A DNA stretch of 64,000 nucleotides from Polyangiales bacterium (GCA_044229975.1 JBGARZ010000009.1:91947-155946); one strand, 5' to 3'. Numbered from the stretch's first letter, positions 4,585 through 59,958 are shown. The notes: generated by a model from the sequence alone, not told the origin. Made by a program: numbers and translations.

Positions 4585-5469
4585 ATGACCGACACCGACC
4601 CCGCCGAGCGCCTCGCCCGATGGAGCCTCGCCACGGGCGTCGCGGTGCTGCTCCTCAAGGGCTTCGCGTGGCGCCTCACCGGCTCGGTGGCGCTGCTCTC
4701 CGACGCGCTGGAGTCCATCGTCAACGTGGTGGCCTCGCTCGCGATGTTCGTCGCGCTGCGCGTGGCCCGCCTCCCGGCCGATCGCAACCACCCCTACGGC
4801 CACGGCAAGGCGGAGTACCTCTCGGCCGTGCTCGAAGGCGTGCTCATCGCCGTCGCCGCCGTGATGAGCCTCCTCGTCGCGTCGGGACGGCTGCTGCACC
4901 CGCGAGCGCTCGTGGACGTCGGCGCGGGCCTCGGCGTGTCCGTCGCCGCCAGCGCGCTCAATGGTCTGCTCGCGTGGCGGCTCATCGTCGCCGGCAAGAA
5001 GCACCGCTCGCCTGCCCTCGCGGCCGACGGGCAGCACATCCTCTCCGACGTGGTCACCACGGCGGGCGTGCTCGTGGGCGTCGGGCTCGCGCGGCTCACC
5101 GGCTGGTGGCGGCTCGACCCGATCCTCGCGTGCGTGGTCGCGGTGAACATTCTCTGGATGGGGTGGAAGCTCGTTCGCCGCTCGGTGGGTGCGCTGATGG
5201 ACGAGGTGCTCGACGAGGACGAGGTCGCCCACGTGCGCGCCGTCGCCGAGCGCGTCGCCCGCGAGGGCGGGGCCGTCGGCGTGAAGGGCTTCCGACTCCG
5301 GCGCACGGGGGCGTCGGGCCAGTGCGACATGACCCTGGTGGTGCCCGGCGAGATGACCGTGCGGGCAGCCCACACGATCTGCGACCGCATCGAGGACGCG
5401 CTGCACACCGATGAGCCTGCGCTCGGGGTGGTGGTGCACGTCGAGCCTGAGCCCGGCAGCGGGGCATAG
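4585..5469 (+). CDS. Cation diffusion facilitator family transporter (CzcD/FieF-like)
   Basis: 294 aa with 6 TM helices, SDALESIVNV, the HPYGHGKAEY motif and a C-terminal cytoplasmic metal-binding domain (HVEPE). Confidence 0.9.
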   Translation: MTDTDPAERLARWSLATGVAVLLLKGFAWRLTGSVALLSDALESIVNVVASLAMFVALRVARLPADRNHPYGHGKAEYLSAVLEGVLIAVAAVMSLLVASGRLLHPRALVDVGAGLGVSVAASALNGLLAWRLIVAGKKHRSPALAADGQHILSDVVTTAGVLVGVGLARLTGWWRLDPILACVVAVNILWMGWKLVRRSVGALMDEVLDEDEVAHVRAVAERVAREGGAVGVKGFRLRRTGASGQCDMTLVVPGEMTVRAAHTICDRIEDALHTDEPALGVVVHVEPEPGSGA

Positions 5470-5491: not shown

Positions 5492-6034
5492 TCAGGACCG
5501 CAGCGCGAGTCTCATGTGCACGCGCGTCGACCAGTCGAGGCCCTCGGCCGTCTGGTCGCGCTCGATGGCCCGCAGTCCCTCGCCGCACTGATCGCGCGGA
5601 ACCACCACGAAGCCGTGACGCGCGTACCACGGGGCGTTCCACGGGACGTCGACCTGCGTGTTGAGCACGATGGACGCCTCACCGTCGCCGCGCGCCCGCT
5701 CGATGACGGCGCGTAGCAACGCGTCGCCCACGCCGCGTCGCCCATGCGCGATGGCCACGCTGATCTGCCCGAGGCACGGCTCTCCGTCGACGCGGCCGAC
5801 GTAGGCCCAGCCCGCGAGCTCGCCGCCCACCTCGGCGACGGTGACGCAGCCCTTCGCGATGAGCCGGCGCGCCACGTCGAGCGGGATGCCATCGCCGTCC
5901 GCGAGCTCGGGGTGCCCCACCGCGGCGAAGCGGGTGTCGGCGTCGAGCGCCACGCGAACGATCTCCGCGATGTCTTCGTCGCGCGCGAGGCGCAGCGTGA
6001 GGGAGAGACGCTGTGGGTCGGGGCGTTGGTCCAT
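5492..6034 (-). CDS. GNAT family N-acetyltransferase
   Basis: 180 aa from the ATG at 6034. Acetyl-CoA binding motif QISVAIAHGRRGVGDALL; C-terminal YARHGF. Confidence 0.8.
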   Translation of the reverse strand: MDQRPDPQRLSLTLRLARDEDIAEIVRVALDADTRFAAVGHPELADGDGIPLDVARRLIAKGCVTVAEVGGELAGWAYVGRVDGEPCLGQISVAIAHGRRGVGDALLRAVIERARGDGEASIVLNTQVDVPWNAPWYARHGFVVVPRDQCGEGLRAIERDQTAEGLDWSTRVHMRLALRS

Positions 6035-6050
6035 GGTCGGGTGCTGTGTC

Positions 6051-6377
6051 CTACGCCTCGGCGATGCCCCGCTCGCGGCGCGCCTTGAGGCAGTCGTCGG
6101 ACCCTGCCTCCACCCGTCGGCACGGCGCCGGGCGCAGCGCGTAGATCTCGCAGCGCACCTTGCGCCCGAGCTTGCCCGAGAGCGCGGTGCACCGCTGGCC
6201 CGCGTCGAGCTTGAGGTGCGCCTTCCCCTCGGCGTCGCGCGTGACGTACCGCTGAACGAGCTTCTGGTGTCGCCAGAGGCCCTCGCGCTCGGACACGTCG
6301 ACATAGGCGACGTAGCCTTCGGCGCGGTTCTCGTCGGGGTTGGTGCAGCATGCGCCGCAGCGGGTGCAATCGAGCAT
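6051..6377 (-). CDS. YkgJ-family cysteine-cluster (zinc/iron-chelating, CxxCxxCC) protein
   Basis: 108 aa MLDCTRCGACCTNPDE...LSGKLGRKVRCEIYALRPAPCR. Typical of the UPF0153/YkgJ family. Confidence 0.75.
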   Translation of the reverse strand: MLDCTRCGACCTNPDENRAEGYVAYVDVSEREGLWRHQKLVQRYVTRDAEGKAHLKLDAGQRCTALSGKLGRKVRCEIYALRPAPCRRVEAGSDDCLKARRERGIAEA

Positions 6378-6494
6378 CGATCGCGAACCATAATCCCAAA
6401 CGCAGCGCTTCTCGCGGGGTCGTACGTCCCACCGGTTGGGACTTCGCGACGACCGATGACGATTTCCGGTCACGAAACACACCCCCACCCGAAC

Positions 6495-7067
6495 ATGCGA
6501 GACGACCCGATGGGAGCCGAAGCAGCAGTGGTCTGGGACACCGATCCGATTGGTCAGGCGCTCGCGGCCGGCGACCCTCGCACCGCCATCGCCCTCTGCG
6601 CGCGCCGACACGGCGCGTCCATCGGGCGCCTGTGCATGGGCTGGCTGGGCTCTCAGACCGAAGCCGAAGAGGCCGTGCAGGAGACCCTCCTCGCGGCCTT
6701 CGACGGCGCGGCCAACTATCGTGCGGAGGGCAGCATCACCGCGTGGCTGTACGGCATCGCGCGGCGGGTGTGCGCCCGTCGCGTCGAGGTGCGCGGCCGA
6801 CGAGAGCGCCAGCTCCGGCTGGTGGGCCCGGAGGTCGACCACGCCGACGGGGCCGACGTGCTGCTCGCCGCCCGACGCCGCGGGGAGCGGGTGCGCGTGG
6901 CGCTGGAGCAGCTCAAGCCGTCGGAGCGCGATGCGGTGGTGCTGCGCTACGAGGGGGAGCTGTCGTTTCGTGAGGTAGGGGAGAGCTGTGGCATCGACGA
7001 GGCCACCGCGCGCAAGCGGGTGAGCCGCGCCCTGGAGAAGCTGCGGTCGACGCTCGTCGACGAGTGA
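6495..7067 (+). CDS. ECF (sigma-70 family, group IV) RNA polymerase sigma factor
   Basis: 190 aa with region 2 (EEAVQETLLAAF...ITAWLYGIARRV) and a region 4 HTH (LKPSERDAVVLRYEGELSFREVGESCGIDEATARKRVSRALEKLR). Directly followed by the anti-sigma gene. Confidence 0.85.
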   Translation: MRDDPMGAEAAVVWDTDPIGQALAAGDPRTAIALCARRHGASIGRLCMGWLGSQTEAEEAVQETLLAAFDGAANYRAEGSITAWLYGIARRVCARRVEVRGRRERQLRLVGPEVDHADGADVLLAARRRGERVRVALEQLKPSERDAVVLRYEGELSFREVGESCGIDEATARKRVSRALEKLRSTLVDE

Positions 7068-7076
7068 GGACATCCA

Positions 7077-10000
7077 ATGATCAACCGATATGACTGCGCG
7101 CGGGTTCAAGAAGAGCTCGCGGCGCTGGCCGATGACGCCATCCCGGAAGAGGCCGCCGCGCACCTGGCCGGGTGCGACGACTGCCGCGACCTGCTCCACG
7201 ACGCGCGCATCGCCGCCCAGACGCTGCGAGGCGGAGCGGGCGCGGACTTCGTCGCGATGGACGGCGACGCGCTCGCCGCGAAGGTGCTCAGTGCCATCGA
7301 CGGGCGGATGTCGAAGGCGACGCCCGTGCACGGGACGCCGATGGCGGTGACCGTCGCGCAGACCTCACCCCCCAGCCCTCTCTCCCTGGCAGGAGAGGGG
7401 GAGCCGAAGGGAGAGGCACCTCTTCCCGTCGCTGTTCCTACGGCCGTTGCCTCTGCCTCTGGCTCCCCCTCTCCTGCCAGGGAGAGGGGGTTGGGGGGTG
7501 AGGTCTCGCCCCCAAAGGCGAGAGGTGAGGTCGCCCGTCGACGCATCGGCGCGTCCATCTGGGGCGCGGGGTTGTTCGCGGCGGCGGCGTCCGTGGCGGT
7601 CGTGGTGGTCGCGATGCGCGGCCCGTCGACGACACCCGCCAACGCGCCCGATGGCTCCTCGCCCGAGACGCCGCGCGGCCCCGTCGGGCCGTGGCACGCG
7701 ACGCTCGGCCGGGCGCTCGGCGCGGGCGTCGAGGTGAAGGCCGCGGGCGCGTCGGACTTCGCCGCGCTGCGTGAGCGCGGGGTCATCGGGCAGGGAGCGA
7801 CGGTACGCACCGACGCCCGCACCCGCGCCCGCATCGACCTCGACGACGGCACCGTGCTCGTCCTCGATCGCGCGACCACGCTGGTGCTCGACCCGAGCGC
7901 GCCACGCCACGCCCGCATCGTCGAGGGAACCCTCGTCGCCGACGTCGCCCACCGCGACGACGCCCCGCCCGCGGTGCTCACCACGGCGCAGGGAGACGTG
8001 CGGGTGCTCGGGACGAAGTTCGCCGTGAGCGCGTCCAACGATCACACCACCGTGCAGGTCACCCGCGGCGTGGTGCGGCTCGGCCAGGCGTCGAGCGACG
8101 GCGTCGAGGTGAAGACCGGCCAGGAGGCCGTGCTCGCCCGCGGTCAGGTGAGCGTGTCGCCGGCCGTCAACCTGGGCGGTCGCGTGGCGTGGTCGGAGCT
8201 CAACGCCCCCGACGACACCACCACCAGCTCCGGCCTCGGTGAGCTGCGCGCGCGCCGCCCCGGCAGCACCGCCGAACGCGATCAGGCCGTGCACCTCGCC
8301 GAGCATCAGGTGCGCGTTCGCATCGTCGGCAACGTGGCGCGCACCGAGATCGAGGAGGTGTTTCGCAACGACACGGGCAGCGAACTCGAAGGGCTCTACC
8401 GCTTTCCGCTGCCGCCCGAGGCGCAGGTGGAAGAGCTCGCCCTCGACGTCGACGGTCGCATGGAACCCGGCGCCTTCGTCGACCGCGACCGCGCGGCGGC
8501 CATCTGGCGCGGGGTCATCCACCACGCGGCGCCCAACACGCCGCCGCCGAGGGAGGAGTACGTCTGGGTGCCTGGTCCGTGGCGTGATCCGGCGCTGCTG
8601 GAGTGGCAGCGGGGTGGGCGCTTCGAGCTGCGGGTGTTTCCCATCCCGGCACGCGGCGCGCGGCGCGTGCGCATCGCGTACACGCAGACCATCGCGCCAT
8701 CGGGCGGCGGACTGCGGCGCTACGTCTACCCGCTGCCCCACGACCCGGGGGGGAGCACCCGCGTCGATCACATGAGCATGGACGTGCAGGTGCTCGGCCA
8801 CAGCGGGACGCAGCCCGCCCGCGTGCTGGGCTACCCCTTCGCGGCCGCCGACACCTCCGCCGCGGCCTCGCGGTGGACCTTCGCGCGCGACAACTTCACC
8901 CCGTCGGGCGACGTGGTGATGGAGTACGCGCTCGGCGACGCGACCGTGCCGGTGACGGCCTGGGGCTACGCCGAGCCGACCAACACCGAAGGGGCGTACG
9001 TGGCCCTCGCGCTGCGACCGCAGCTCCCGCGCTGGGGCGAGGCGAGGCCGCGGGACTACGTCTTCGTGGTCGACGCGAGCCGCTCCATGGTGGGCGAGCG
9101 CTACGCCCGCGCGACCCGTCTGCTCAGCTCCATCGTCTCGGAGATGGACCGCCGCGATCGGCTCACGGTGCTCGCCTGCGACGTTCGGTGCGTGGCGATG
9201 CGGGAGGGGATGGTCCCGGCGAGCGCGGAGGTGTCGCGGCAGGTGAGCGGGTGGTTGCAGGCGCGCGAGCCCGCCGGCGGGAGCGACCTCGGCGCGGCGG
9301 TGCGGGCGGCGGCGAGCGCGACGCGTTCGACCCCGGACGACCGCGACGTGCGCGTGGTGTACCTGGGCGACGGCGCGTCGACGGTGGGCCACCGGCGCCC
9401 GACGACGCTGGCGCTGGAGGTGACGACGGCGCTGCCCGCGCGCAAGGCGACGTTCACCGCGGTGGCGGTAGGAGCAGAAGCGGACACCACGACGCTCGCG
9501 GCGATGGCGCGGGCGGGTGGTGGGGTGGTGGTTCCGTACCTGCCGGGCGAGGCGAGGACGGGGGCGGCGCTCTCGGTGCTCGAAGCGACGTATGGGGCGG
9601 TGCTGCGCGACCCGGAGGTGACGCTGCCGTCGGGGCTGGTGTCCATGGCGCCAGCGCGACCCGACAACCTGCGCGCGGGCTCCGAGGCCGTCATCACGGC
9701 GCGGATGCTCCCCGGCGTGCGCGAGGTCGAGGGCGAGGTGGTGCTCCGCGGAACGGTCGCCGGCGAAGCCTTCGAGGCGCGCTACCCGATCACGGTGCGG
9801 GCGACGGAGGACGCGGGGAATGCGTTTGTTCCGCGGCTGTTTGGCGCGGCGCGCATCGCTGATCTCGAAGCGGGCGGCGAGCCCGGCGCGCGGGCCGAGA
9901 TGGTGGCGCTGTCGCAGCGGTTTCACCTGGCGAGCCGGTACACGTCGCTGCTGGTGCTGGAGAGCCCGGCGATGTTTCGCGCCTTCGGGGTGGAGCGCAC

Positions 10001-11450
10001 GGCGGGCGGCGTGACGTGGACGGGCGAGACCGAGGCGCTCGCGACGGGCGCCACGGCGACCACGGCCGATGCGAGCGGCGAGGAGGAGCAGCGCACGGCC
10101 GCGGAGGACAACGCATCGACCGAGGCGCTCGGCGGCCTGGCGGCGGCGCACGGCCGCGGAGGCGCGGCGAGCGAACGAGCGTCGACGGAGCCGGAGCCCG
10201 ACATGGTCGAAGCGCCCCGTCGGGAGAACAGCGCGGGGTACGGCCATGTCCAGCAGGTGCCGGCGACGACGACGACGATGCCGCGGCCCGCGCCGGTGGT
10301 CGCGGCGGCGCCGGCCGCGCCTGCGGCGATCTCACAGGCCAACAGCGGGATGCTCGACAACGACGACCTCCAGCGGAGAGGTCCGGCGGCGGCGGCGACC
10401 CGGATGCGTCGCGACGTGGCGGTCGATCGACCGTGGGCGGGAGGCGGTCGCTGGATGCGACGGACGTGGGTGCGTCACGCGGCGGTGAGCGCGCCGGTCG
10501 TGTCGGCGGAGTCGCTGCGGACGCGCATCGAGGCGGCGCGGCGCGCGCTCGGGGAGAACCCCAACAGCCGCGATCGTCACCGGGAGTTGTTCCGGTGGCT
10601 GTCGCTGGCGGGCGAGCTCGACGAGGCGGCGCGGGTGGCCGAGGCGTGGATCGCGCGCGACCCGCTGGACGCCGACGCGCTGATGCGGCTGTCGGACGTG
10701 GCGGCGCGGCGGGGCGATCGTCTGCGGGCGATGCGCTGGCTGGGCGGCGTGGCGGACGTTCGGCAGGACGACGCGCTGCTGCTCGACCGGCTGGCGATGA
10801 TGCACGCGCGGGCCGGGGACGCCGAGACGGCGTGCGCGTACCGGGTGGCGTCGGCGGAGTCGCGGAGCAGCGACGCGACGAAGGTGGCCGAGGCGGTGCG
10901 GTGCGAGCGGGCGCTGGGGCGCGAGATGTTCGCGGGGCGGATGCTCGATCTGTTGACGGACGCGGCGCAGCGATCGCGGGCGGAGTCGCTGGCGATGGGC
11001 AGCGGGGCGGACGTGTTCGCGAGCGTGCGCGGCGAGCTGCTGGCGCAGGCGACGTGGGACGTGGGGGTCGACCTCGACGTGGTGTTCATTGATCCGAACG
11101 GGGTGCGCGTGTCGTGGCAGGGCGGCCGCGCGGGGACGACGGTCAACGAGCCGATGGGCAACGGGCGCGAGTCGCTGGCGCTGGGTCGGCTGGCGACGGG
11201 CGACTGGCGGGTGGAGGTGGTGCGCACCGACCGCGAGGTGACGGGCGCGCAGGACGAGGACGACGCGACGCCGCGGACGGTGGTGCGCGGGAGCGTGACG
11301 CTGACGGCGCTGGGCGAGCGGCGGGTGCTGCCGTTTACGCTGACGGGGACGCGCGCACCGGTGGGCCGCGTGGTGGTGACGCGGGAGGAGCAGCTGGTGC
11401 CAGCGGGTCCGCCGCCGCCGGGCGCGCAGTTGGAGATGAGGCGCTGGTAG
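7077..11450 (+). CDS. Giant anti-sigma factor: zf-HC2, TM, FecR, VIT, vWA and TPR-like C-terminal region
   Basis: 1457 aa. N-terminus has the zf-HC2 motif (C..HLAGCDDC). A TM helix (IGASIWGAGLFAAAASVAVVVVAM) follows. Then a FecR domain (GATVRTDARTRARIDLDDGTVLVLDRAT), a VIT domain (VRIVGNVARTEIEEVFRNDTGSELEGLYRFPLP), a vWA domain (DYVFVVDASRSMVG...VVYLGDGASTVG), and helical repeats plus a beta-rich tail. Confidence 0.8.
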   Translation: MINRYDCARVQEELAALADDAIPEEAAAHLAGCDDCRDLLHDARIAAQTLRGGAGADFVAMDGDALAAKVLSAIDGRMSKATPVHGTPMAVTVAQTSPPSPLSLAGEGEPKGEAPLPVAVPTAVASASGSPSPARERGLGGEVSPPKARGEVARRRIGASIWGAGLFAAAASVAVVVVAMRGPSTTPANAPDGSSPETPRGPVGPWHATLGRALGAGVEVKAAGASDFAALRERGVIGQGATVRTDARTRARIDLDDGTVLVLDRATTLVLDPSAPRHARIVEGTLVADVAHRDDAPPAVLTTAQGDVRVLGTKFAVSASNDHTTVQVTRGVVRLGQASSDGVEVKTGQEAVLARGQVSVSPAVNLGGRVAWSELNAPDDTTTSSGLGELRARRPGSTAERDQAVHLAEHQVRVRIVGNVARTEIEEVFRNDTGSELEGLYRFPLPPEAQVEELALDVDGRMEPGAFVDRDRAAAIWRGVIHHAAPNTPPPREEYVWVPGPWRDPALLEWQRGGRFELRVFPIPARGARRVRIAYTQTIAPSGGGLRRYVYPLPHDPGGSTRVDHMSMDVQVLGHSGTQPARVLGYPFAAADTSAAASRWTFARDNFTPSGDVVMEYALGDATVPVTAWGYAEPTNTEGAYVALALRPQLPRWGEARPRDYVFVVDASRSMVGERYARATRLLSSIVSEMDRRDRLTVLACDVRCVAMREGMVPASAEVSRQVSGWLQAREPAGGSDLGAAVRAAASATRSTPDDRDVRVVYLGDGASTVGHRRPTTLALEVTTALPARKATFTAVAVGAEADTTTLAAMARAGGGVVVPYLPGEARTGAALSVLEATYGAVLRDPEVTLPSGLVSMAPARPDNLRAGSEAVITARMLPGVREVEGEVVLRGTVAGEAFEARYPITVRATEDAGNAFVPRLFGAARIADLEAGGEPGARAEMVALSQRFHLASRYTSLLVLESPAMFRAFGVERTAGGVTWTGETEALATGATATTADASGEEEQRTAAEDNASTEALGGLAAAHGRGGAASERASTEPEPDMVEAPRRENSAGYGHVQQVPATTTTMPRPAPVVAAAPAAPAAISQANSGMLDNDDLQRRGPAAAATRMRRDVAVDRPWAGGGRWMRRTWVRHAAVSAPVVSAESLRTRIEAARRALGENPNSRDRHRELFRWLSLAGELDEAARVAEAWIARDPLDADALMRLSDVAARRGDRLRAMRWLGGVADVRQDDALLLDRLAMMHARAGDAETACAYRVASAESRSSDATKVAEAVRCERALGREMFAGRMLDLLTDAAQRSRAESLAMGSGADVFASVRGELLAQATWDVGVDLDVVFIDPNGVRVSWQGGRAGTTVNEPMGNGRESLALGRLATGDWRVEVVRTDREVTGAQDEDDATPRTVVRGSVTLTALGERRVLPFTLTGTRAPVGRVVVTREEQLVPAGPPPPGAQLEMRRW
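7361..7506. repeat. MITE-like element with ~41-bp near-perfect terminal inverted repeats, inserted inside the anti-sigma CDS
   Basis: Left arm gacctcaccccccagccctctctccctggcaggagaggggg (7361-7401). Right arm ccccctctcctgccagggagagggggttggggggtgaggtc (7466-7506) is its reverse complement with about 3 mismatches. The ORF reads through it as a Pro/Ser/Gly/Glu-rich linker. Confidence 0.75.
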
Positions 11451-11466
11451 ACGGGCGGGTGGGGAC

Positions 11467-11487
11467 GGGGACGGTTTCAGCTTTTCA
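11467..11487. repeat. Left copy of a 21-bp inverted repeat (ggggacggtttcagcttttca) bracketing a ~3.5-kb insertion
   Basis: Its reverse complement occurs at 15011-15032 (gtgaaaagctgaaaccgtcccc), 21/22 identical. A 21-mer match is not expected by chance in 64 kb. Confidence 0.75.
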
Positions 11488-11571
11488 ACTTGTTAGGGCG
11501 CCGCAGCAAAGTGCTCGGGCTGAACGGGCGTAGGGTGTCCAGCGCTCGCCAGAGCTCCCAGGCAGTCGGGC

Positions 11572-12084
11572 ATGCAACTCGCGACCAACGTGACGAAGGT
11601 GTTGAAGGAGACGGCCGCCGCCTTGAAGGGCAGCGAACGTCGGCGGTTCATGGCGCGGACGGTGCGCGACCTGTTCGACGGCGTGATGAACCGAGCCGTT
11701 CGCGCGCTCGACTGGGACGAGCGGACGTTGCGCAAAGGCAAGAACGAGCTGCGCTCCGGGATCGAGTGCCTCGACGGTCGCTCCGGCGGCGGACGTCCGA
11801 CGGCGCAATCGCGACTGCCGAACCTGATGCGGGATCTGCGCGACCTCGTCGATGGTCAGAGTCAGACCGATCCGCGCTTTCAAACGCAGCGGCTCTACAC
11901 ACGCATCACGTCGGCCGAAGTCCGTCGGCAACTCATCGCGCAGAAGGGGTACACGGACGAGGAGTTGCCGTGTGAGGAGACGATCCGCGTCAAGCTCAAC
12001 GACCTGGGATATGGGCTGCGCGCCGTGGCCAAGACCAAGCCGAAAAAAAGGTCGCCGCGACGGACGCCATCTTCGAACAGATGA
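11572..12084 (+). CDS. Transposase orfA (N-terminal part of frameshifted ISAzo13-like transposase)
   Basis: 170 aa. Ends 3 codons after an A7 run (12043-12049, cgAAAAAAAgg). Confidence 0.6.
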   Translation: MQLATNVTKVLKETAAALKGSERRRFMARTVRDLFDGVMNRAVRALDWDERTLRKGKNELRSGIECLDGRSGGGRPTAQSRLPNLMRDLRDLVDGQSQTDPRFQTQRLYTRITSAEVRRQLIAQKGYTDEELPCEETIRVKLNDLGYGLRAVAKTKPKKRSPRRTPSSNR

Positions 12085-12794
12085 GTCGTGAGCGGGCGAC
12101 GGCCGCGCGTTCGCCCAACGTGCTGGAACTGTCGATGGACGCCAAGGCCGTCATCAAGGTGGGGGAGTTCTCTCGGTACGGCGTCAGTCGCGTGCTGGTG
12201 TTTGCGCTCGATCACGACCACGGGGCCGAGGCGAAGGTGACGCCGTACGGCATCCTGCTCACAGCCCACAACGAGCTGACGGTGTCTCTGGCGACGGGGC
12301 CCGTCACGGCGGACTTCATCGTCGATCGGATCGAGGCGTGGTGGTGCGCTCACCGGGCGCGCTTTCCGGAGGTCGATACGCTCCTTTTGCTTCAGGACAA
12401 CGGGCCCGAAAACCAGAGCCGTCGCACACAGTTTCTGTCGCGGATCGTGGCCTTTGCGCAGGCCCATCGGATCAACGTACGCCTCGCCTACTACCCGCCG
12501 TACCACAGCAAGTACAACCCCGTGGAGCGCTGCTGGGGCGTCCTCGAACAGCACTGGAATGGGAGCATCTTGGACACCGTGGAGACGGTCGTGAACTTCG
12601 CTCAGACCATGACCTGGAAAGGGGTCGCGCCCGTCGTGCAACTGGTCACCACGACGTACGCCAAGGGGATCTCGCTCACGCGTGCGGCGATGGCGAAAGT
12701 CGAGGCGCAGGTCCAGCGTCTCGCGGGCTTGGAAGCGTGGTTCGTGGAGATCCTCTGCGCGCCGAAGGCCGTGCGGGGCGACGGAGCGCACTGA
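12081..12794 (+). CDS. Transposase orfB (DDE catalytic part, in -1 frame relative to orfA)
   Basis: 237 aa with DHDHGAEAKVTPYG...LLLQDNGPEN...YYPPYHSKYNPVERCWGVLEQHWNG. Overlaps orfA by 4 nt. The -1 frame is open from the A7 run, so orfA and orfB together give about 400 aa. Confidence 0.6.
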   Translation: MSRERATAARSPNVLELSMDAKAVIKVGEFSRYGVSRVLVFALDHDHGAEAKVTPYGILLTAHNELTVSLATGPVTADFIVDRIEAWWCAHRARFPEVDTLLLLQDNGPENQSRRTQFLSRIVAFAQAHRINVRLAYYPPYHSKYNPVERCWGVLEQHWNGSILDTVETVVNFAQTMTWKGVAPVVQLVTTTYAKGISLTRAAMAKVEAQVQRLAGLEAWFVEILCAPKAVRGDGAH

Positions 12795-13227: not shown

Positions 13228-14541
13228 TTACCGAACCCGGATGATCCAATTCACGCTGGCGTTCAGGGGACGACTCTCGCCGCCACCCGCAGCCTGGACT
13301 GACACCGTAACGGGAAGGGGATGACGCGAAACACCCGCGTTACCGTTGTCGTGAAAGTTTCCGCCGGTCGAAAATCCATTTCGCATCTCGCTATTTCCAA
13401 TCGCTGTGCTCGAAAACGGATTTCCTCCCATCACCGCTGACGCCCCATGGTTGTGTGACCCGACCGCGCCAGACTGAACCGTGCCGACCGCGTCACCGCT
13501 CCGTCCTCCCGCTGCCATCGACGTGCGCCCGCCGCGATCTGGGTCACGTCCTGCGTTTAGATCTGCGCCGCGCAGGAAGTAGCCTCGGTAGTCAGGAAGG
13601 TTGAAGGTCAGAGCGTCTGGGGTGCCATGCGCGGTACCGATGGCCGTAAAAAGCCCAGGATAGCCGGTTCGAGAGAGGGGTCGGCCGTCGCAAAGCAACC
13701 AGCCCGAGGGAGGCGTGTCGCCCGCAAACGCAACAACTCCCCCGATCGGTGTCGTGACAGGTGGAGGCGCATCAACCTCCGCCGCCTCTGGGATGATAGT
13801 CACTAGAGCCCCACCCCCGGTCGAAACGACCAACTGCGCAGGGGGGGCAAAGATCCGCCGTCCTGGCGCAGCGCTCGGCGAACTTGCTACGCGTCGGCGA
13901 CACGACATTGACAGAAAGGAGTTGCCGATCATGGTCAGCTGACTCCTGGGTCCGGTAGGTTGATTCCGGCGCGCGTCCCAAAGTTCGCCAGCACACTGGA
14001 ATGCGTCATCGGGAATCACGCGAACGTCCTGAAGGCCGATGCCCGAAGTACCCGGGCCGTTATATGACAGAGCAAGCGTGACCAGATCCGATTCGCTCCC
14101 TGAAATGGTGCGCCTGAAGTGTAGTCCTTGTCGCTCCGCCTCGACGCAAGCTCGATAAGCTTGCATCGCATCAGGCGAGATGGTTTGGGTGAGCAGATCC
14201 TGCTCTTGCGCGGACATACTACGAGTGTCCGAGTTGGTGCACAGCGATCGCGCCAATGTCTCCAACTGAGCATACGACATACGAGCATCGACTCCGAAAA
14301 ACGGAGCGTCGACCATCACGCTTGCAGCGACGTTGGTTTGCGATAGTGACTGGTACGTCGAGCACATCGACTGCACCGCGGAGGAAGCTTGCTGCGCCGT
14401 ACTGCGGGTTCGGACGGAGTTGTACACCCCGAGCCGGAGTTGATCGACGCACGATGTATTGAGATTGTTTTGCGCACAGACCTCCACTGAGGAGATGAAT
14501 AGTGCCAGAGCTGTTACTATGGCGATTCCGAACTTGTTCAT
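13228..14541 (-). CDS. Secreted protein with C-terminal phage tail-collar domain (MdpB / tail-fibre-like)
   Basis: 437 aa. Signal peptide MNKFGIAIVTALALFISSVEVCAQ. C-terminus has the tail-collar motif (FAGDTPPSGWLLCDGRPLSRTGYPGLFTAIGTAHGTPDALTFNLPDYRGYFLRGADL...GSHNHG). GC is markedly lower than the flanks (many AT-rich stretches between 13.2 and 14.9 kb). Confidence 0.7.
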   Translation of the reverse strand: MNKFGIAIVTALALFISSVEVCAQNNLNTSCVDQLRLGVYNSVRTRSTAQQASSAVQSMCSTYQSLSQTNVAASVMVDAPFFGVDARMSYAQLETLARSLCTNSDTRSMSAQEQDLLTQTISPDAMQAYRACVEAERQGLHFRRTISGSESDLVTLALSYNGPGTSGIGLQDVRVIPDDAFQCAGELWDARRNQPTGPRSQLTMIGNSFLSMSCRRRVASSPSAAPGRRIFAPPAQLVVSTGGGALVTIIPEAAEVDAPPPVTTPIGGVVAFAGDTPPSGWLLCDGRPLSRTGYPGLFTAIGTAHGTPDALTFNLPDYRGYFLRGADLNAGRDPDRGGRTSMAAGGRSGDAVGTVQSGAVGSHNHGASAVMGGNPFSSTAIGNSEMRNGFSTGGNFHDNGNAGVSRHPLPVTVSVQAAGGGESRPLNASVNWIIRVR

Positions 14542-23764: not shown

Positions 23765-24451
23765 ATGCGATCCACCCTGGTCCGTTGGCTCACCCCAGAG
23801 CGCCGCCGCGTACTGTGGGTGCTGCTCGCCTCGGTGGTGTTTCGCTACCTGTGCGTGAAGCTGATGATCGCCCTGTCGCTCTGGGCCGAGCGGCAGCCCG
23901 CGCCCACGTTGGCCGACGCCCTCGTCGACCGCATCCCGCTCGTCCCGTGGATGGACAACGTCAACTACCTCGTGTGGGGTCTCGGGTTTGTTCCGGTGTC
24001 GCTGGTGATGCTCTTCACCGACCCGTCGCGCTACGCCCGCTACTCGGTGACCGACGGCATCCTCTCCGCCGTGCGCGGGTGCTGCGTGGCCGTCACCAGC
24101 CTCGGCCCCGTGCGCGGGATGAACCACGCCGCGGCGGTCGCAGCCAACACCAACGGCCTCACCATGGCGGCGGCGCCGGTCAACGGTGCGCTCGCGGAGT
24201 CCAGGCAGCTCTTCCTCACGCACGACATGTTCTTCTCGGGTCACACGGCGACGACGTTCTTGCTGCTGCTGTACGTGATGCGCGCGCCACGGCTGCGGGC
24301 GGCGATGGTCGTCACGCACGTCGCGGTGGTGGTGACGCTGCTCTTCGGTCACATGCACTACACCATCGACATCATCGGGGCGTGGGCGGTGACCTTCACC
24401 GTGTTCTGGCTGCGCGAGGGCGACGTGCGGGCATTCCTACGCGGCGGGTGA
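23765..24451 (+). CDS. PAP2-superfamily membrane protein (sphingomyelin-synthase-like PAP2_C)
   Basis: About 228 aa, multi-TM. Catalytic motifs FFSGHTATTFLLLLY and HYTIDIIGAW (SGH...HxxxD). 3' end overlaps the convergent kinase gene by about 15 nt. Confidence 0.6.
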   Translation: MRSTLVRWLTPERRRVLWVLLASVVFRYLCVKLMIALSLWAERQPAPTLADALVDRIPLVPWMDNVNYLVWGLGFVPVSLVMLFTDPSRYARYSVTDGILSAVRGCCVAVTSLGPVRGMNHAAAVAANTNGLTMAAAPVNGALAESRQLFLTHDMFFSGHTATTFLLLLYVMRAPRLRAAMVVTHVAVVVTLLFGHMHYTIDIIGAWAVTFTVFWLREGDVRAFLRGG

Positions 24452-26395
24452 CCGGCGGGCGCGCAGCCAGCCGAAGTACATCCCCAGGAGGATCATCCCG
24501 TTGGTCCCGACGCCGTACCAGAGGAGCGCGCGGGCGGGCACCAGCACGGTGGCGACGGAGCACAGGCCCGTCCACACCGCGAGCCAGCCGAGCCACGGGC
24601 GGATGGTCACGGCGCCGATGGTGTTGAGGGCCGCGAGCACCACGAGGTCGCCCCCGATCACGGTCGGGATCGACGTCTGCCCCGTACGCCACGCCACCAG
24701 GCGGTGCGCGAGGGTCGTCACGACGCACACCGCCGCGAAGGCCGCGAACTGCCGGCTGATGCGGTTGACCATCAGTCCGCGCCTTCCGACGAAGAGCCCC
24801 AGCAACACCAGCGACGCCATCCCGGCGTTGACGAACACGAGGTGCCCGATGCCCGCCCGGTCGGCGCTCGGCGCCCAGAGGCGCACGAGCACGGTCACCA
24901 CCGACCCGGCCATGACCACGCCCAACAGCGGCGCCCGCGCGCCGAGTCCCTGGGAGATGTCCGTCTCCCTCGCCTCTTCGACGGCGGCGGCCTCGCGTTC
25001 GCGGCGCAGTCGTAGCGCCTCGGCCAGCGCGGCGAGGCGCTGCTCGGTCGACGCGTCGCGGTCGCCGAGCTCGTCGGCGAGGGCGCGGGCGGCGTCGAGG
25101 TTCTCGCGCGCGAGCTCGTGCTCCAGGAGGAGCCGCAGGGTGTGCCCGAGGCCGTCGCGCGCGCGGATGTTGCCGGGCCAGACTTCGAGCGCCTGCGCGA
25201 AGCCGAAGCGGCACTCGATGGCGAGGCGGTGGATGCGCGCCGGGTCCGGCCCCGACGCGCGAGCGGTGAGGTCGCGGAGCACCGCGAGGCGCACCGTGGC
25301 GGAGGCGGCCAGCGTGAGGCTGGCGCGGTGGCGGACGTACTCGGTGAGGCGACGACGAAACTCCAGGGCGCTCTGCGGGCGGCGCTCGGGGTCGGGGTGC
25401 GTCGCCTGGTTGCAGAGCTCGGCGAGCTCGACCGGGACGTCCGCGCCGTACTCCACCGGCTGCGAGAGGTGCGCCGCGAAGAGCACGGCGTAGATGGTCG
25501 CCCCGAGGTGGCGATTGGTACCGGTGAGAACGGCGTGGAGCGTCGCGCCCAGGAGGTACACGTCGGTGCGCGCGTCGACCTTCGACACATCCCCCGCGAC
25601 CATCTCCGGAGCCATGAACGCCGGGGTCCCGCGGATGGACGGAGCCTTCCCCTCTGGGCGCTCCGCGGGGCGATCGCGGTCGAGCCGCGCGGCGATGCCC
25701 CAGTCGACGAGGTAGACCTCGCCGAAGGCGCCGACCATGACGTTTTCGGGTTTGATGTCGCGGTGCACGACGCGGCGCGAGTGGGCGTAGTGGACCGCGT
25801 CCGCGACCCGGATGAGCACCTCGATGTTGGCCGTGGCGCGATCACCGTGGGCGTCGAGGAGGGGCGTCCACGCCGGGTGGTCGGGGCTCTCCAGCAGGGT
25901 GCACCAGCTCGTCCCCTCGACGCGCTTCATCACGAGCACGGGCCGGCCCTGGTCGTCGCGCCCGAGGGCGTGCACCGGGACGATGTTGGGGTGCTCGACG
26001 CCGCCCATCACCACCGCCTCGCGGAGCAGCGCGAGCGCCCCGTCGTGGTCGGCCGTCTCGGGCCGGAGCACCTTCACCGCGACGTCGCGGGCGAGCGAAC
26101 GCTGGCGCGCGAGCAGCACCTTGCCCATGCCGCCTTCGCCGAGGGTTCCGACGACGCGGAGGTCGTGCGTGCCGGGGTCGCCGTCGACCGCATCGCCGAC
26201 AGCGTCACCGCTCGTCGAGAGGTCGAGGGAGATGGAGGGCAGCGGCGGCGGCGTGAACGAGGCCGCCGGAACAACGGGCGGCGCGGCGGTGGCGGCGAAG
26301 GTGCGCGCGGTGACCGTCTGCCCGAAGGCCACCACGTCCTTGATCTGGTCGAGGTGGTGCTCCTGCCAGAGGGTCTCGAAGTCGTCGGTGGACAT
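24437..26395 (-). CDS. Ser/Thr protein kinase with C-terminal polytopic membrane domain
   Basis: 652 aa from the ATG at 26395 (MSTDDFETLWQ...). Kinase motifs GEGGMGKV, VAVKVL, HRDIKPENVMV, DWGIA and APE are present. Six or more TM helices follow after residue ~480. Confidence 0.85.
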   Translation of the reverse strand: MSTDDFETLWQEHHLDQIKDVVAFGQTVTARTFAATAAPPVVPAASFTPPPLPSISLDLSTSGDAVGDAVDGDPGTHDLRVVGTLGEGGMGKVLLARQRSLARDVAVKVLRPETADHDGALALLREAVVMGGVEHPNIVPVHALGRDDQGRPVLVMKRVEGTSWCTLLESPDHPAWTPLLDAHGDRATANIEVLIRVADAVHYAHSRRVVHRDIKPENVMVGAFGEVYLVDWGIAARLDRDRPAERPEGKAPSIRGTPAFMAPEMVAGDVSKVDARTDVYLLGATLHAVLTGTNRHLGATIYAVLFAAHLSQPVEYGADVPVELAELCNQATHPDPERRPQSALEFRRRLTEYVRHRASLTLAASATVRLAVLRDLTARASGPDPARIHRLAIECRFGFAQALEVWPGNIRARDGLGHTLRLLLEHELARENLDAARALADELGDRDASTEQRLAALAEALRLRREREAAAVEEARETDISQGLGARAPLLGVVMAGSVVTVLVRLWAPSADRAGIGHLVFVNAGMASLVLLGLFVGRRGLMVNRISRQFAAFAAVCVVTTLAHRLVAWRTGQTSIPTVIGGDLVVLAALNTIGAVTIRPWLGWLAVWTGLCSVATVLVPARALLWYGVGTNGMILLGMYFGWLRARRSPAA

Positions 26396-26614
26396 CGTCG
26401 GCGCGCGAGTGTGCACGAAGCCCGCGGGCCACCGCCACCTGCCGCTGCCACACCATTGGCGCCCACCTCCTCACCTCGTAGCGTCGGGCAGCGGAAGTTC
26501 CCCCTCCCCTCCTTCGACGGCTCTGCCTCGGACCTCTCTCGCTCAACAGCCGCCATCGGTAGCTCGCCGTCGCCGCCGTACTCGCGCTCACCATCACCAC
26601 GCAGGTCGGCTTGA

Positions 26615-29558: not shown

Positions 29559-29774
29559 TGCTGGCGGTTTTCGAGGCCCACCACTCAACCCTGTTTATCT
29601 GACGAGCATCCGTCTTCGCCACGACCGTTGAGGTGAAGCGCGCGCTGGTGCGAGTCGATCGCGACGGCGGCACGGGATCATCCTCGGACCGATGAATGCT
29701 GGTCGGATTCGCGGCACCTGCTGGCGTTGCGCGCGGGGAGCGGGTGTAGCCTCGCGCGGAAGGGTAGCGGGGCC

Positions 29775-32390
29775 ATGACATTCAACCGACGAGCAGTGGG
29801 ATGGGCGACGCACGGACTCGCAGCGCTCGCGCTGGTGGGGTGCAGCGCACCTGCGACCGGTCCGATCGATGCGGCGCGGACATCGGACACGCCGACGACG
29901 GACCTCTCGGGCGACGACGCGACGGCGCGCGAAGTGCTGACAGGAACCATCGGCCCCGCAGGAGGTGAGCTGCGGGGCGCGGGGGTGGTGTTGCGCGTCC
30001 CGGAGGGGGCGCTCGACCGAACGGTGACCCTGCGCGCCGAGGACACGGGGCTCTCCCCGCCGCCTCCCTACGACGGCTACAGCAACGTCTGGCGATTCAC
30101 CCCCGAAGGGCTGACGTTCGCGCGCCCGGTGACCGTCTCGCTGCGCTTCCGTCGCGGCCCCGACCCGGCCGTCGCGTGGTCACGCGCGGGAGCCGAAGGT
30201 TACGAGTGGCGGTCCAGCGAGGTCGCGGGCGACGTCATCAGCGCCTCGGTCGACCACTTCAGCACCGGCTTCGTCGCGGCGCGCACGCCCGTCGACGCCG
30301 CGGTCCCGGACGCCGCGGCCGATGACCGCGCGGCGCTCCCCGACGTGCCCGACATGACCGATGCGCCCGATGTGCTCGATGTGCCTGCTCGCCCTGACGC
30401 GAGCTCCAGCGACGCCGCCCCGAGCGTTGATGCCTCCACCGATGCCGACGTGACGACCGATGTGCCCGCTCGTGAGGACGTTCCGATCGACAGTCCCCCA
30501 CCGACCTTCGACGCACCCATCGTCGACGTCGGTGCGACCCCTGACGCTGGCGTCGCCGAGGACGTCATCGCCTGCCGCTCCGGCGACGTCGGACCCGACG
30601 GCGGCGGCGACCCCGACCTCTTCCCGGGCGCGGAGATCATCCCTGACGCCCCCGCCTTGACCGTCGACTTCGATCGCGTGCGCACCGGCCTCAACGCGGG
30701 CCTGACGTGCCTCTCGGACACTACGGAGTCGCGAGACGCCGTGCTGCACTTCCGGCTGACCGAGTCCCGCGACGTGACCTTCAGCGTCACCGCCGAGATG
30801 AGCACCCAGTACACCTACGTGCAGCTCCAGCGCTCGTGCGTCCCCGGCGCGCCGACCCTCGGTGCGTGTCGCGTCGGGCGGGCGCAGACCAACTTCCGCC
30901 GAGCGCTCCCGGCCGGTGACTACTACCTGGTGCTGGGAGCGTTCGGGCCCCGCCAGAGGCACGCGGTGCAGGTCCGAACCGCTCCGCCGACCACGCCGCC
31001 GCCGGGGGACACCTGCGGCAACCCGATGGAGGTCACACCCAACGGCCCTCCCTCGGCTCTCCCTCCCACCAACCTCGGCCTCGACGCCGACGTCGGTCTG
31101 GCTTGCGCGACGCCCGCCGACCACTACGAAAACACCGACGGCGTCTGGCACTTCCGCCTCGACACCACCAGCAACCTCACCGTCACCACCACCGCCGGGC
31201 CCTCCCAGGTGTGGTGGCGACTCCAGCGCTGGGGTTGCGCCGTGGACAGCACCGCCGTCGGCTTCTGCACCGCCACCGGCGCGACCTCGATTCGCACCTT
31301 CGCGGGGCAGACGCCCGGCGACTACTACCTCATCGGCGAGTGGCGATCGGGCTACACGGGCAGCGTCGCGGTCTCCGTGGCGACCTCTCCCGTGACGGGG
31401 CGCCAGCGGGGCGACCTCTGCTCCGATCCGCTCGTGGTGACACCTGACGGGCCGCCTGTGAGCATCCGCCGCGACCAGCTCGCGGCGGGCGACGACCACG
31501 GGCTGCGCGGCAACTACACCGAGAGCAACGCCTCCACTCGTCGCGACGCCGACTTCGTCTACACACTCTCGGAACCACGCGACGTCGTGGTGACCGTCGA
31601 GGACACCGAGGGCACCGGGTCGACCTACTTCGAGGTGCACCGCCGCTGTGGCGAGTGGCCGCCCGACCTCGGCTTGAGCCGCCTCGACACGCGGGACTCC
31701 ACGCGCGAGCTGGTCATCCCGCGACAGGCAGCGGGGACGTGGTTCATCGCCGCGTCACTGGCCAATGGGTCCGTCGTCGCGACGGCTCGCGTGCGCACCT
31801 TCCCGGCTGGGACCTTCAACACGTACAGCCTGTCGCAGCCGACCTCGGTCGTGTGGACGCCTGCGTGCGGCGTCCCGGGCTCGACGGTGCTCATCGCCCC
31901 GGCGAGCGGGTCGACCGCGCAGATGCCGCTGCCCTTCGCGCTCCGGTATTGGGGCGTCGACATCCCGGCGGGCTTCTCGGTGAACGTCTCGCGCTACGGC
32001 CACCTGAACCTCGACGGCATCGTCACCTCGGGGGGCGGGACGCTGCCCTCCCCGACTGCCCCCAATGGCATCGTCGCGCCGGCGCCGCGCAGCGACTGGC
32101 GGGTGCGCGCGCCCGGCCTCTGCACGGTGGTGCTCGGCACAGCGCCCAACCGTCGCTGGGTCATCCAATGGAACAGCTCCACGGCGCCGCTGGTCGGGAC
32201 CGGCATTCCCGCCGACTACGAGGTGATCGTGAGCGAGGGGACCAACACCCTCGACTTCGTGTACGGCGTCAGTGCTGGAGTCGGTGCAGCGGGTCGCCCT
32301 GGCATCGAAGACCTGTCGGGTACCAACGCGGTGACCTGGGACTATGGCATCGACGAAGGCACGCGCATCCGCTTCACGCCGACGCGTTGA
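29775..32390 (+). CDS. Large secreted lipoprotein with ZU5-like N-terminal domain and repeated beta-rich modules
   Basis: 872 aa from the ATG at 29775 (MTFNRRAVGWATHGLAALALVGCSAPA; lipobox LVGC). N-terminus GELRGAGVVLRVPEGALDRTVTLRAEDTGL...YSNVWRFTPEGLTFARPVTVSLRF is ZU5-like. A Pro/Asp/Ala-rich linker follows, then two similar Cys-containing modules (...DYYLVLGAF... / ...DYYLIGEW...). Confidence 0.6.
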   Translation: MTFNRRAVGWATHGLAALALVGCSAPATGPIDAARTSDTPTTDLSGDDATAREVLTGTIGPAGGELRGAGVVLRVPEGALDRTVTLRAEDTGLSPPPPYDGYSNVWRFTPEGLTFARPVTVSLRFRRGPDPAVAWSRAGAEGYEWRSSEVAGDVISASVDHFSTGFVAARTPVDAAVPDAAADDRAALPDVPDMTDAPDVLDVPARPDASSSDAAPSVDASTDADVTTDVPAREDVPIDSPPPTFDAPIVDVGATPDAGVAEDVIACRSGDVGPDGGGDPDLFPGAEIIPDAPALTVDFDRVRTGLNAGLTCLSDTTESRDAVLHFRLTESRDVTFSVTAEMSTQYTYVQLQRSCVPGAPTLGACRVGRAQTNFRRALPAGDYYLVLGAFGPRQRHAVQVRTAPPTTPPPGDTCGNPMEVTPNGPPSALPPTNLGLDADVGLACATPADHYENTDGVWHFRLDTTSNLTVTTTAGPSQVWWRLQRWGCAVDSTAVGFCTATGATSIRTFAGQTPGDYYLIGEWRSGYTGSVAVSVATSPVTGRQRGDLCSDPLVVTPDGPPVSIRRDQLAAGDDHGLRGNYTESNASTRRDADFVYTLSEPRDVVVTVEDTEGTGSTYFEVHRRCGEWPPDLGLSRLDTRDSTRELVIPRQAAGTWFIAASLANGSVVATARVRTFPAGTFNTYSLSQPTSVVWTPACGVPGSTVLIAPASGSTAQMPLPFALRYWGVDIPAGFSVNVSRYGHLNLDGIVTSGGGTLPSPTAPNGIVAPAPRSDWRVRAPGLCTVVLGTAPNRRWVIQWNSSTAPLVGTGIPADYEVIVSEGTNTLDFVYGVSAGVGAAGRPGIEDLSGTNAVTWDYGIDEGTRIRFTPTR

Positions 32391-44591: not shown

Positions 44592-44671
44592 GGCCGTCGG
44601 GTCTTCTACCGTATGCCGCAACATTTAGCGCCCTTGCCGGTGCTGCGGCGTGAGCGTATGTCGCCCGCACC

Positions 44672-47976: not shown

Positions 47977-48215
47977 GCCGCGACTCTACCGAAGAACCAC
48001 CCGCGATCGATCCCGCCGTCACGCCCTTCGTCAGTGCGACAAACCGAGCGCACTCCATCCCGGCGGCGTCTGGAAGCGCCGCACCTGTCGGCACACCCTC
48101 GCGCCACGGCCCCACATCGCGCCTGATTCATACATTGCCGAGCGTTTCGCGATCGCGGAAGGATGGTTCGTCCAGTTCCACCATTGCCCTTGATCACCTC
48201 CACAGGGAGCCTTCG

Positions 48216-59908: not shown

Positions 59909-59958
59909 GGCGACCGCGAGCCTATCCCGACCAGCGCACCAACCGGAACCCCTCAACA

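Follow-up and report, generated by a model that had tools for sequence, protein, structure and literature searches.

A myxobacterial ECF sigma/anti-sigma pair with a FecR-type domain and a predicted adhesion-type periplasmic sensor

Pairs of extracytoplasmic function (ECF) sigma and anti-sigma factors represent a major route of transmembrane signalling in bacteria, with the input being known for few of them. In FecR, the G181-T182 bond is a self-cleavage site, and FoxR is processed likewise, via an N-O acyl shift; the fragments remain associated until a signal arrives, followed by a site-1 cut and the action of RseP (PMC12036975). DdvA of Myxococcus xanthus, a zinc-type anti-sigma factor under RseP control, carries a periplasmic sensor of ~900 residues (PMC11506125). 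Among catalogued families, the anti-sigma factors of ECF289 combine a von Willebrand A (vWA) domain with DUF3520, meaning that vWA-bearing anti-sigma factors are already on record. ECF267 is a small group from Sorangium and Chondromyces with a "FecR-like anti-sigma fused to TPR" (tetratricopeptide repeat), for which a G/D/E-rich C-terminus of the sigma factor and neighbouring kinases were published, but neither a FecA-like receptor nor a conserved promoter motif (Casas-Pastor et al. 2021, NAR; bioRxiv supplement). Here, we describe an ECF sigma gene and the adjacent gene for a giant anti-sigma factor in a 64,000-nt stretch of DNA from a Polyangiales bacterium (GCA_044229975.1 JBGARZ010000009.1:91947-155946; hereafter the window, ~73% G+C), with all positions counted from its first nucleotide.

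Strong support exists for the components of this pair, namely an ECF sigma factor and its cognate anti-sigma factor, a single-pass protein that comprises a zinc-type N-terminal domain, a FecR domain with the cleavage residues, a unit resembling inter-alpha-inhibitor heavy chains (ITIH) with a metal-ion-dependent adhesion site (MIDAS), a TPR array and a beta-sandwich. From these parts we infer, at a probability of roughly 0.55, a self-cleaved anti-sigma factor that is destroyed by regulated proteolysis once its periplasmic adhesion module engages a ligand.

The sigma factor, its anti-sigma factor and their putative promoter

The sigma gene (6510-7067, + strand) encodes an ECF (group 4) protein of 185 residues that matched Sigma70_r2 (E 4.8e-12) and Sigma70_r4_2 (E 5.3e-13) in Pfam as well as TIGR02937 (E 1.3e-20), and consists of the sigma-2 and sigma-4 regions only, fitting the typical ECF size of ~180-200 residues. 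Its nearest solved relatives are SigE, SigK, SigW and CnrH, with Rhodobacter sphaeroides RpoE (2q1z) also being similar, while BLASTP returned no similarity to E. coli FecI (E 0.24). Gene callers place the start at ATG 6510, and the 185-residue form is on record. A preliminary description of this DNA, made from the sequence alone, had instead chosen ATG 6495, which is in frame, yet lies inside a conserved non-coding motif (see below) and has an equivalent that is out of frame or missing in several relatives.

A gap of 9 nt separates the sigma stop codon, itself overlapped by a GAGGA ribosome-binding site, from the anti-sigma gene (7077-11450, + strand). The latter forms one unbroken frame of 1457 codons with no internal stop and coding-type composition (G+C of 0.76/0.57/0.91 at the first, second and third codon positions), specifying, as deduced from Pfam, homologues and alignment, a giant single-pass transmembrane protein of 1457 residues. 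The preliminary description had suspected a frameshift around 8.2 kb, in which case the protein would be an artefact of at least two genes joined through a missed frameshift or stop codon. The codons at this very position specify GLGELRARRPG (residues 386-396; 8232-8264, + strand), the linker between the FecR domain and the following vault/inter-alpha-trypsin (VIT) domain, and a frameshift is excluded because this invariant peptide is unbroken in all 30 aligned homologues of 1370-1590 residues (the set behind every statement on alignment-based invariance below; motif counts by regular expression refer to 116 long homologues). In addition, more than 100 homologues of 1370-1620 residues are collinear with the protein across all of its domains, and the identical 1457-residue protein, together with identical neighbours, was called on an independent assembly from a separate sequencing run. 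With no point found in its favour, we count the artefact as already refuted.

The cytoplasmic part begins with a zinc-type anti-sigma domain (residues 1-80; 7077-7316, + strand), recognised from its motif C7/H29/C33/C36 and from similarity to RsiW and zf-HC2, and continues as an Ala/Pro/Gly/Ser-rich linker up to residue 156. The zf-HC2 domain proposed earlier stands in part: C7 and H29-x3-C33-x2-C36 are near-invariant in the alignment (zinc motif in 102/116 homologues), the family profile matched RsiW over residues 17-77 (E 1.3e-3), and four of the 30 relatives matched zf-HC2 itself (best E 3.9e-5), whereas the window protein gave no Pfam zf-HC2 match at E ≤ 0.1. Hydropathy confirmed the single transmembrane helix (residues 157-180; 7545-7616, + strand) as the sole Kyte-Doolittle peak above 1.6 in the whole protein; the basic residues ARRR immediately precede it, and one helix with basic residues on its N-terminal side argues for a periplasmic location of everything that follows.

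Comparison across loci strengthened the proposed pairing. In 63 of 81 loci, the gene immediately upstream, in the same orientation, encodes a sigma factor, with 50-87% identity in most. Where enough upstream DNA was available (67 loci), the two features co-varied without exception: with the anti-sigma domain present, a sigma gene was adjacent (60/60), and with the domain absent, so was the sigma gene (7/7). Such perfect co-variation is the strongest available evidence on the matter and strongly supports the N-terminal domain as the predicted sigma-binding part. The seven domain-less proteins begin shortly N-terminal of the transmembrane helix. From the helix onwards they are the same protein, with FecR, VIT, vWA and TPR regions (loci L014, L021, L024, L036, L066, L072 and L073); two aligned examples (P0066 and P0093) possess a degenerate MIDAS, DAGRS, and an extra C-terminal domain of ~90 residues.

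Conservation of C7/H29/C33/C36 could also be read as a sign of cytoplasmic redox or thiol sensing by the zinc motif, as in RsrA or ChrR, with adhesive or structural periplasmic domains unrelated to it. The sigma factor's resemblance to SigW, SigE, SigK and R. sphaeroides RpoE, some of which pair with zinc-type anti-sigma domains, would be in line with this, and a combined mode of this kind has been discussed for DdvA. Yet a periplasmic part of 1270 residues is kept together with the anti-sigma domain in ~90% of loci, which argues for a signal from outside, and zinc is generally structural in membrane-bound zinc-type anti-sigma factors, e.g. RsiW. We thus consider redox sensing improbable.

The region upstream of the sigma gene contains a conserved bipartite motif, GGTCACGAA-N14-GAACATG (6468-6497, + strand), with a -35-like half, GGTCAC(G/A)AA, and a -10-like half, (G/C)CAC. 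GTCAC occurred at most 120 nt from the sigma start in 51 of 57 loci vs. 7-13 of 57 in control windows. Anchored alignment revealed a constant order of GGTCAC(G/A)AA, ~15 variable bases, (G/C)CAC(A)(T)G, a Shine-Dalgarno-like GAGG and the start codon. When 1.0 Mb of related loci (~16 kb each) were scanned on both strands, the strict pattern matched 28 times, 25 of them immediately upstream of a sigma gene. Boxes of the TGTCACA(A) type at -35 have been described for ECF41, ECF103, ECF250 and ECF288, and the spacing of the present motif is that of TGTCACA-N16-CGTC. We regard the motif as a putative ECF promoter, probably the sigma operon's own and autoregulated. A scan of positions 6000-12000 for sigma-70-type promoters and terminators gave nothing useful.

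The sole other loose match in the window, GTCACGCCCCGAGGCCGTGGTGCACATG (51729-51756, + strand), misses the GAA after GTCAC. Reading a regulon from the motif was abandoned, as neither the window nor the flanks of the loci offered a convincing second site.

The periplasmic region

The periplasmic FecR domain spans residues ~208-375 (7698-8201, + strand). Pfam FecR (PF04773) covered residues 242-334 with E 9.5e-14 and 52 bits, about twice the cut-off of 24, in agreement with the preliminary description, and the family profile matched PupR (6ovk_R, E 1.3e-4) as well as 4m0n. In the BLASTP alignment with E. coli FecR (E 1e-6), VRVLGTKF falls on LTALGTEF, thereby placing G312-T313 (8010-8015, + strand) on the self-cleavage site G181-T182. 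Both residues are invariant (30/30), and the GT motif was found in 114/116 long homologues. A receptor-binding (STN-binding) subdomain, FecR_C, had no Pfam match in the protein, whose FecR domain leads straight into the ITIH-like unit. Retention of the Gly-Thr site, while the receptor-binding C-terminus, a TonB receptor and a FecI-like sigma factor are all absent, is the feature that the preliminary description had overlooked and is mechanistically the most informative. A twin-arginine motif, as in FecR, was considered and dropped, as it is not conserved in the alignment.

The ITIH-like unit (8286-10001, + strand; ends TSLLVLES...MFRAFG) comprises a VIT domain (residues ~404-560), a vWA domain (~660-830) and a C-terminal beta/helical region to ~975. 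Pfam VIT matched residues 408-535 (E 8.5e-14, 52 bits vs. a cut-off of 26.5) and Pfam VWA_3 residues 662-817 (E 7.5e-14, 52.5 bits vs. 27); with scores about twice the cut-offs, both assignments of the preliminary description hold. TIGR03788 was matched partially (E 2.4e-31, 109 bits vs. a cut-off of 552), and the family profile, compared with the PDB, found ITIH4 (E 3e-18) and ITIH1 (E 8e-10). An AlphaFold (AF2) model of residues 195-985 reached a mean predicted local distance difference test (pLDDT) score of 83.9 and a predicted template-modelling score (pTM) of 0.82. Foldseek aligned this model to ITIH1 (6fpy) with E 1e-28 and a target-normalised TM-score of 0.59 across 611 columns; BatB was also among the structural matches. 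Because the model matches the ITIH1 crystal structure over ~610 columns, residues ~400-985 are predicted to adopt the whole heavy-chain fold, extending beyond the two Pfam domains.

Within the vWA domain, D666, S668, S670, S735 and D765 align with the DxSxS...T...D of the ITIH4 MIDAS, S735 being a Ser for Thr. The intact-looking MIDAS reported earlier is hence borne out by the ITIH4 alignment, with this one replacement, and the metal-ion-dependent adhesion site is apparently functional, as predicted from its aligned residues. C701 and C705 are invariant. Conserved Cys pairs, C701/C705 and C1253/C1276, are confined to the C-terminal part of the protein, consistent with an oxidising compartment.

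Conservation across the family peaks at VWVPGPWRDPALLEW (residues 491-513; 8547-8615, + strand), a segment inserted into the VIT domain that contains the invariant columns W497-W510. In the model (residues 297-319 therein), its pLDDT is below 50, i.e. the segment is invariant but has no confident fold.

A low-complexity, Ala/Gly/Thr-rich linker of ~150 residues (976-1125; 10002-10451, + strand), variable in both length and sequence, leads to a beta strand (1127-1138) with a WMRRTW motif and ten TPR-type helices (1144-1307; 10455-11006, + strand, for strand and helices), which harbour the invariant C1253/C1276. Weak in Pfam, the TPR assignment is clear from profile and structure, and the helical repeats noted earlier were identified in this way. 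In the AF2 strands, a C-terminal beta-sandwich is predicted for residues ~1321-1442 (11031-11405, + strand). Pfam offered no convincing family for it, with sub-threshold PPC similarity in some relatives and no match to DUF2135. We also considered whether the proteins end in a conserved aromatic residue that might serve as a signal for a protease or PDZ domain, and discarded the idea: of 116 homologues, 40 terminate in R, 23 in W and 18 in F.

Distribution, gene neighbourhood and the predicted signalling route

A search of 5.8 billion proteins at E ≤ 1e-5 revealed more than 1000 homologues. The best 120 are nearly all 1370-1620 residues long and nearly all carry FecR and VIT, usually with vWA; those with names bear generic ones ("FecR domain-containing", "VIT domain-containing") and stem from Polyangiales, Polyangiaceae and "Myxococcales" genomes. 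Scanning one genome per species identified relatives in 414 species genomes, the best 80 being all myxobacterial and mostly Polyangia-type. Carriers include Sorangium, Polyangium, Byssovorax, Labilithrix luteola, Sandaracinaceae and many metagenome-assembled genomes (MAGs), and the closest relatives are MAGs (75-78% identity). Each complete genome was listed once, suggesting one copy per genome. The phyletic survey that the preliminary description had proposed thus uncovered a large conserved family and not a peculiarity of one genome: judged by sequence similarity, the fusion of FecR, VIT and vWA to an anti-sigma factor is not rare among Polyangia-type myxobacteria.

Within the 81 loci compared, the sigma gene is the sole broadly conserved neighbour of the anti-sigma gene, and a regulon could not be assigned from the neighbourhood for this reason. 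Other neighbours are clade-specific and mostly housekeeping (glucose-6-phosphate dehydrogenase, 6-phosphogluconate dehydrogenase, fatty-acid hydroxylase and 3-hydroxyacyl-CoA dehydrogenase, also a MarR regulator and a Ser/Thr kinase). Neither a MoxR ATPase, already noted as not adjacent in the preliminary description, nor a TonB-dependent transducer was found among the window neighbours or the conserved neighbours of the 81 loci.

At rest, the cytoplasmic zinc-type domain would hold the sigma factor, as comparative genomics supports. Because the FecR domain keeps the Gly-Thr self-cleavage pair, the anti-sigma factor probably consists of two non-covalently associated fragments, 1-312 and 313-1457. 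The larger fragment would bear the ITIH-like VIT and vWA unit, the long flexible linker, the TPR array and the beta-sandwich, domains that would replace the receptor-binding C-terminus of classical FecR. Binding or pulling by a ligand in the periplasm or envelope, most likely a protein that might dock via the metal site or the TPR groove, would loosen or remove this fragment. Left behind, the membrane stub would become accessible to a site-1 protease and an RseP-type site-2 protease, and the freed sigma factor would transcribe its own operon from the GGTCAC...CAC promoter, plus a further regulon. In other words, we infer cleavage at G312/T313, ligand-induced loss of 313-1457, site-1 and RseP-type proteolysis, sigma release and autoregulation. 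The preliminary description had proposed gating at the cell surface; in a diderm cell, the sensor is instead predicted to be periplasmic and anchored in the inner membrane.

Several points weigh against this route. Cleavage, zinc binding, sigma binding, ligand and proteases are all deduced from the sequence, and a conserved Gly-Thr is needed for FecR-type cleavage, from which its sufficiency in this protein does not follow. Gating by a ligand at the MIDAS meets two limits. Firstly, 30 of 116 relatives have a degenerate MIDAS, DxGx[A/T/S], and metal-dependent binding is therefore not a universal trigger. Secondly, anti-sigma-less versions exist; seven loci have neither the anti-sigma domain nor the sigma gene, which shows that the periplasmic protein can occur by itself and that this module serves, or used to serve, an independent function. 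Furthermore, the 64-kb window holds no second motif copy of comparable quality, and no partner gene other than the sigma gene is conserved beside the pair in the 81 loci, which makes ligand and regulon unreadable from context.

Some of the same observations would suit an envelope-integrity or assembly checkpoint, where the periplasmic part is mainly a scaffold tied to peptidoglycan, outer-membrane or matrix partners, and damage or unfolding frees the sigma factor non-specifically. Versions devoid of the anti-sigma domain, an apparently single copy per genome in a family spread over 414 species genomes, long flexible linkers that could span the periplasm, and the lack of a conserved ligand or partner gene nearby all speak for such a checkpoint. 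The retained self-cleavage site and a MIDAS that is intact in most members suggest, on the contrary, a specific, switch-like mechanism, and the invariant loop at 491-513, exposed at the surface, resembles an element for specific docking. We consider the checkpoint possible, if somewhat unlikely.

Ligand-gated proteolysis might be taken one step further. A bacterial counterpart of adhesion G-protein-coupled receptors or Notch, in which an autoproteolytic juxtamembrane FecR domain holds a large integrin/ITIH-like MIDAS ectodomain non-covalently until a ligand or a mechanical pull in the envelope strips it off, with intramembrane proteolysis and sigma release to follow, appears rather unlikely to us. 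On this reading, the invariant loop 491-513, apparently unstructured, and the C-terminal TPR could together act as an internal lock that is opened by ligand. Since the pair occurs apparently once per genome across the social, predatory Polyangia, it could serve as a reporter of contact with other cells, matrix or prey.

Two genes upstream of the pair raise yet another reading, a metal homeostasis switch that responds to a cation at the MIDAS or the zinc site and has these neighbours in its regulon. One encodes a CDF (cation-efflux) transporter (4585-5469), the other a CxxCxxCC (PF03692) protein (6051-6377, - strand) divergent from the sigma gene, with which it shares a 130-nt intergenic region holding the motif. 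Their position and the intact MIDAS would be compatible with metal sensing, but the CDF gene stands beside the pair in 1/81 loci and has no promoter-like motif in front of it in the window scan, and the CxxCxxCC gene accompanies the pair in 6/81 loci, the six closest. Being kept only by the closest relatives, the CxxCxxCC gene is probably outside the system. Similarity to the nearest relatives spans only 6056-11453, i.e. it stops at 6056 on the upstream side and ends exactly at the anti-sigma stop codon on the other. A metal switch is hence highly improbable.

Immediately downstream of the anti-sigma gene (11572-12794, + strand), an ISAzo13-family DDE transposase is split into overlapping open reading frames (ORFs; 11572-12084 and 12081-12794) in different frames. 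As no convincing terminal inverted repeats were found around it, it may be a decayed insertion sequence. Between ~12000 and ~15000, the G+C content falls from ~73% to 58-66%, and a 437-residue protein with a phage tail collar domain (E 6.5e-19) is encoded at 13228-14541 (- strand); this stretch beside the transposase is possibly horizontally acquired. Further away, the window encodes Ser/Thr protein kinases at 24437-26470 (- strand; 13 kb from the pair, Pkinase E 1.9e-34) and 47946-49958 (+ strand; 36 kb, E 9.9e-31), two ORFs of 917 and 600 residues with coding-type composition and no match in Pfam (E ≤ 1e-5) or PADLOC (29637-32390, + strand; 58208-60010, - strand), and a single ORF combining homocysteine S-methyltransferase and methylenetetrahydrofolate reductase domains (44654-46588, + strand).

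Comparison with known systems

The searchable literature holds no description of the FecR-VIT-vWA combination and no experiment on any family member. New here are the aligned self-cleavage site, the predicted whole-chain ITIH fold with its aligned MIDAS, the promoter-like motif, the co-variation of anti-sigma domain and sigma gene, and the relatives without an anti-sigma domain. The FecR self-cleaving module can apparently function without a TonB-dependent receptor; where the receptor-binding domain would be, the protein has a VIT-vWA adhesion unit of eukaryote-like type, equipped with a metal site, together with TPR array and beta-sandwich. The pair is conserved across an entire class of soil bacteria with large genomes and social behaviour. 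If the favoured route holds, the pair would be a case of adhesion-type outside-in signalling in bacteria, G312/T313 would be a defined cleavage site, and the candidate promoter motif would enable regulon prediction in complete Sorangium or Labilithrix genomes. Otherwise, the protein remains correctly annotated, as one member of a family that has been catalogued but not characterised.

With FecR, FoxR and PupR of E. coli and Pseudomonas, the window protein shares the layout of a single-pass inner-membrane ECF regulator, a periplasmic FecR domain (PF04773) and the Gly-Thr at the aligned position, and the same downstream steps, a site-1 protease and then RseP, would be expected. It differs in having no FecR_C, no TonB-dependent transducer nearby and a sigma factor that is not FecI-like, and in being longer by ~1100 residues, which make up ITIH-like, TPR and beta-sandwich domains. 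Its cytoplasmic domain is of the zinc HxxxCxxC type. The pair is therefore predicted to work most like the FecR/FoxR regulators, yet, as the receptor-binding subdomain, TonB transducer and FecI-like sigma factor are absent, falls outside that system as defined.

The present pair and DdvA-DdvS of M. xanthus both come from myxobacteria and both have a zinc domain, one transmembrane helix and an unusually large, TPR-containing sensor, with self-proteolysis and subsequent RseP action proposed for either. Among studied proteins, DdvA would be the closest functional analogue. The sensor of DdvA is a TPR-CHAT caspase-like protease, whereas the sensor described here consists of FecR, VIT-vWA, TPR and beta-sandwich parts with no CHAT match in Pfam. 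DdvS controls a CBASS/CRISPR island; no defence genes flank the present pair, and a defence-island link was rejected, as PADLOC returned no matches in the window.

The periplasmic unit itself resembles ITIH1, ITIH4 and bacterial VIT-vWA proteins (TIGR03788 sortase targets) in its succession of VIT, vWA and C-terminal region, overall fold and aligned MIDAS. These are secreted or wall-anchored adhesion proteins and not signal transducers, whereas the unit here is tethered to an anti-sigma factor; moreover, its VIT domain carries a family-specific invariant insertion, and its TIGR03788 score is far below the cut-off. Like the ECF289 anti-sigma factors and the BatA-BatB-MoxR proteins, the window protein is membrane-bound and carries a vWA domain facing the periplasm, but there is no DUF3520 match, no MoxR ATPase and another overall architecture.

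The published description of ECF267 offers the closest fit among catalogued groups. Because Sorangium sigma orthologues end in ...LGEE (...TLVDE in the window protein) and some related loci carry a Ser/Thr kinase, the pair, as compared with the published description, probably belongs to ECF267. Unlike the family seen here, that description includes neither VIT nor vWA nor a promoter motif. The family is thus probably already catalogued, though unstudied. What the locus encodes is not peculiar to this genome and does not amount to a categorically new kind of system. Rather, the self-cleaving FecR-type/zinc-type anti-sigma design occurs here in a widespread version that carries an unusual adhesion-type sensor.

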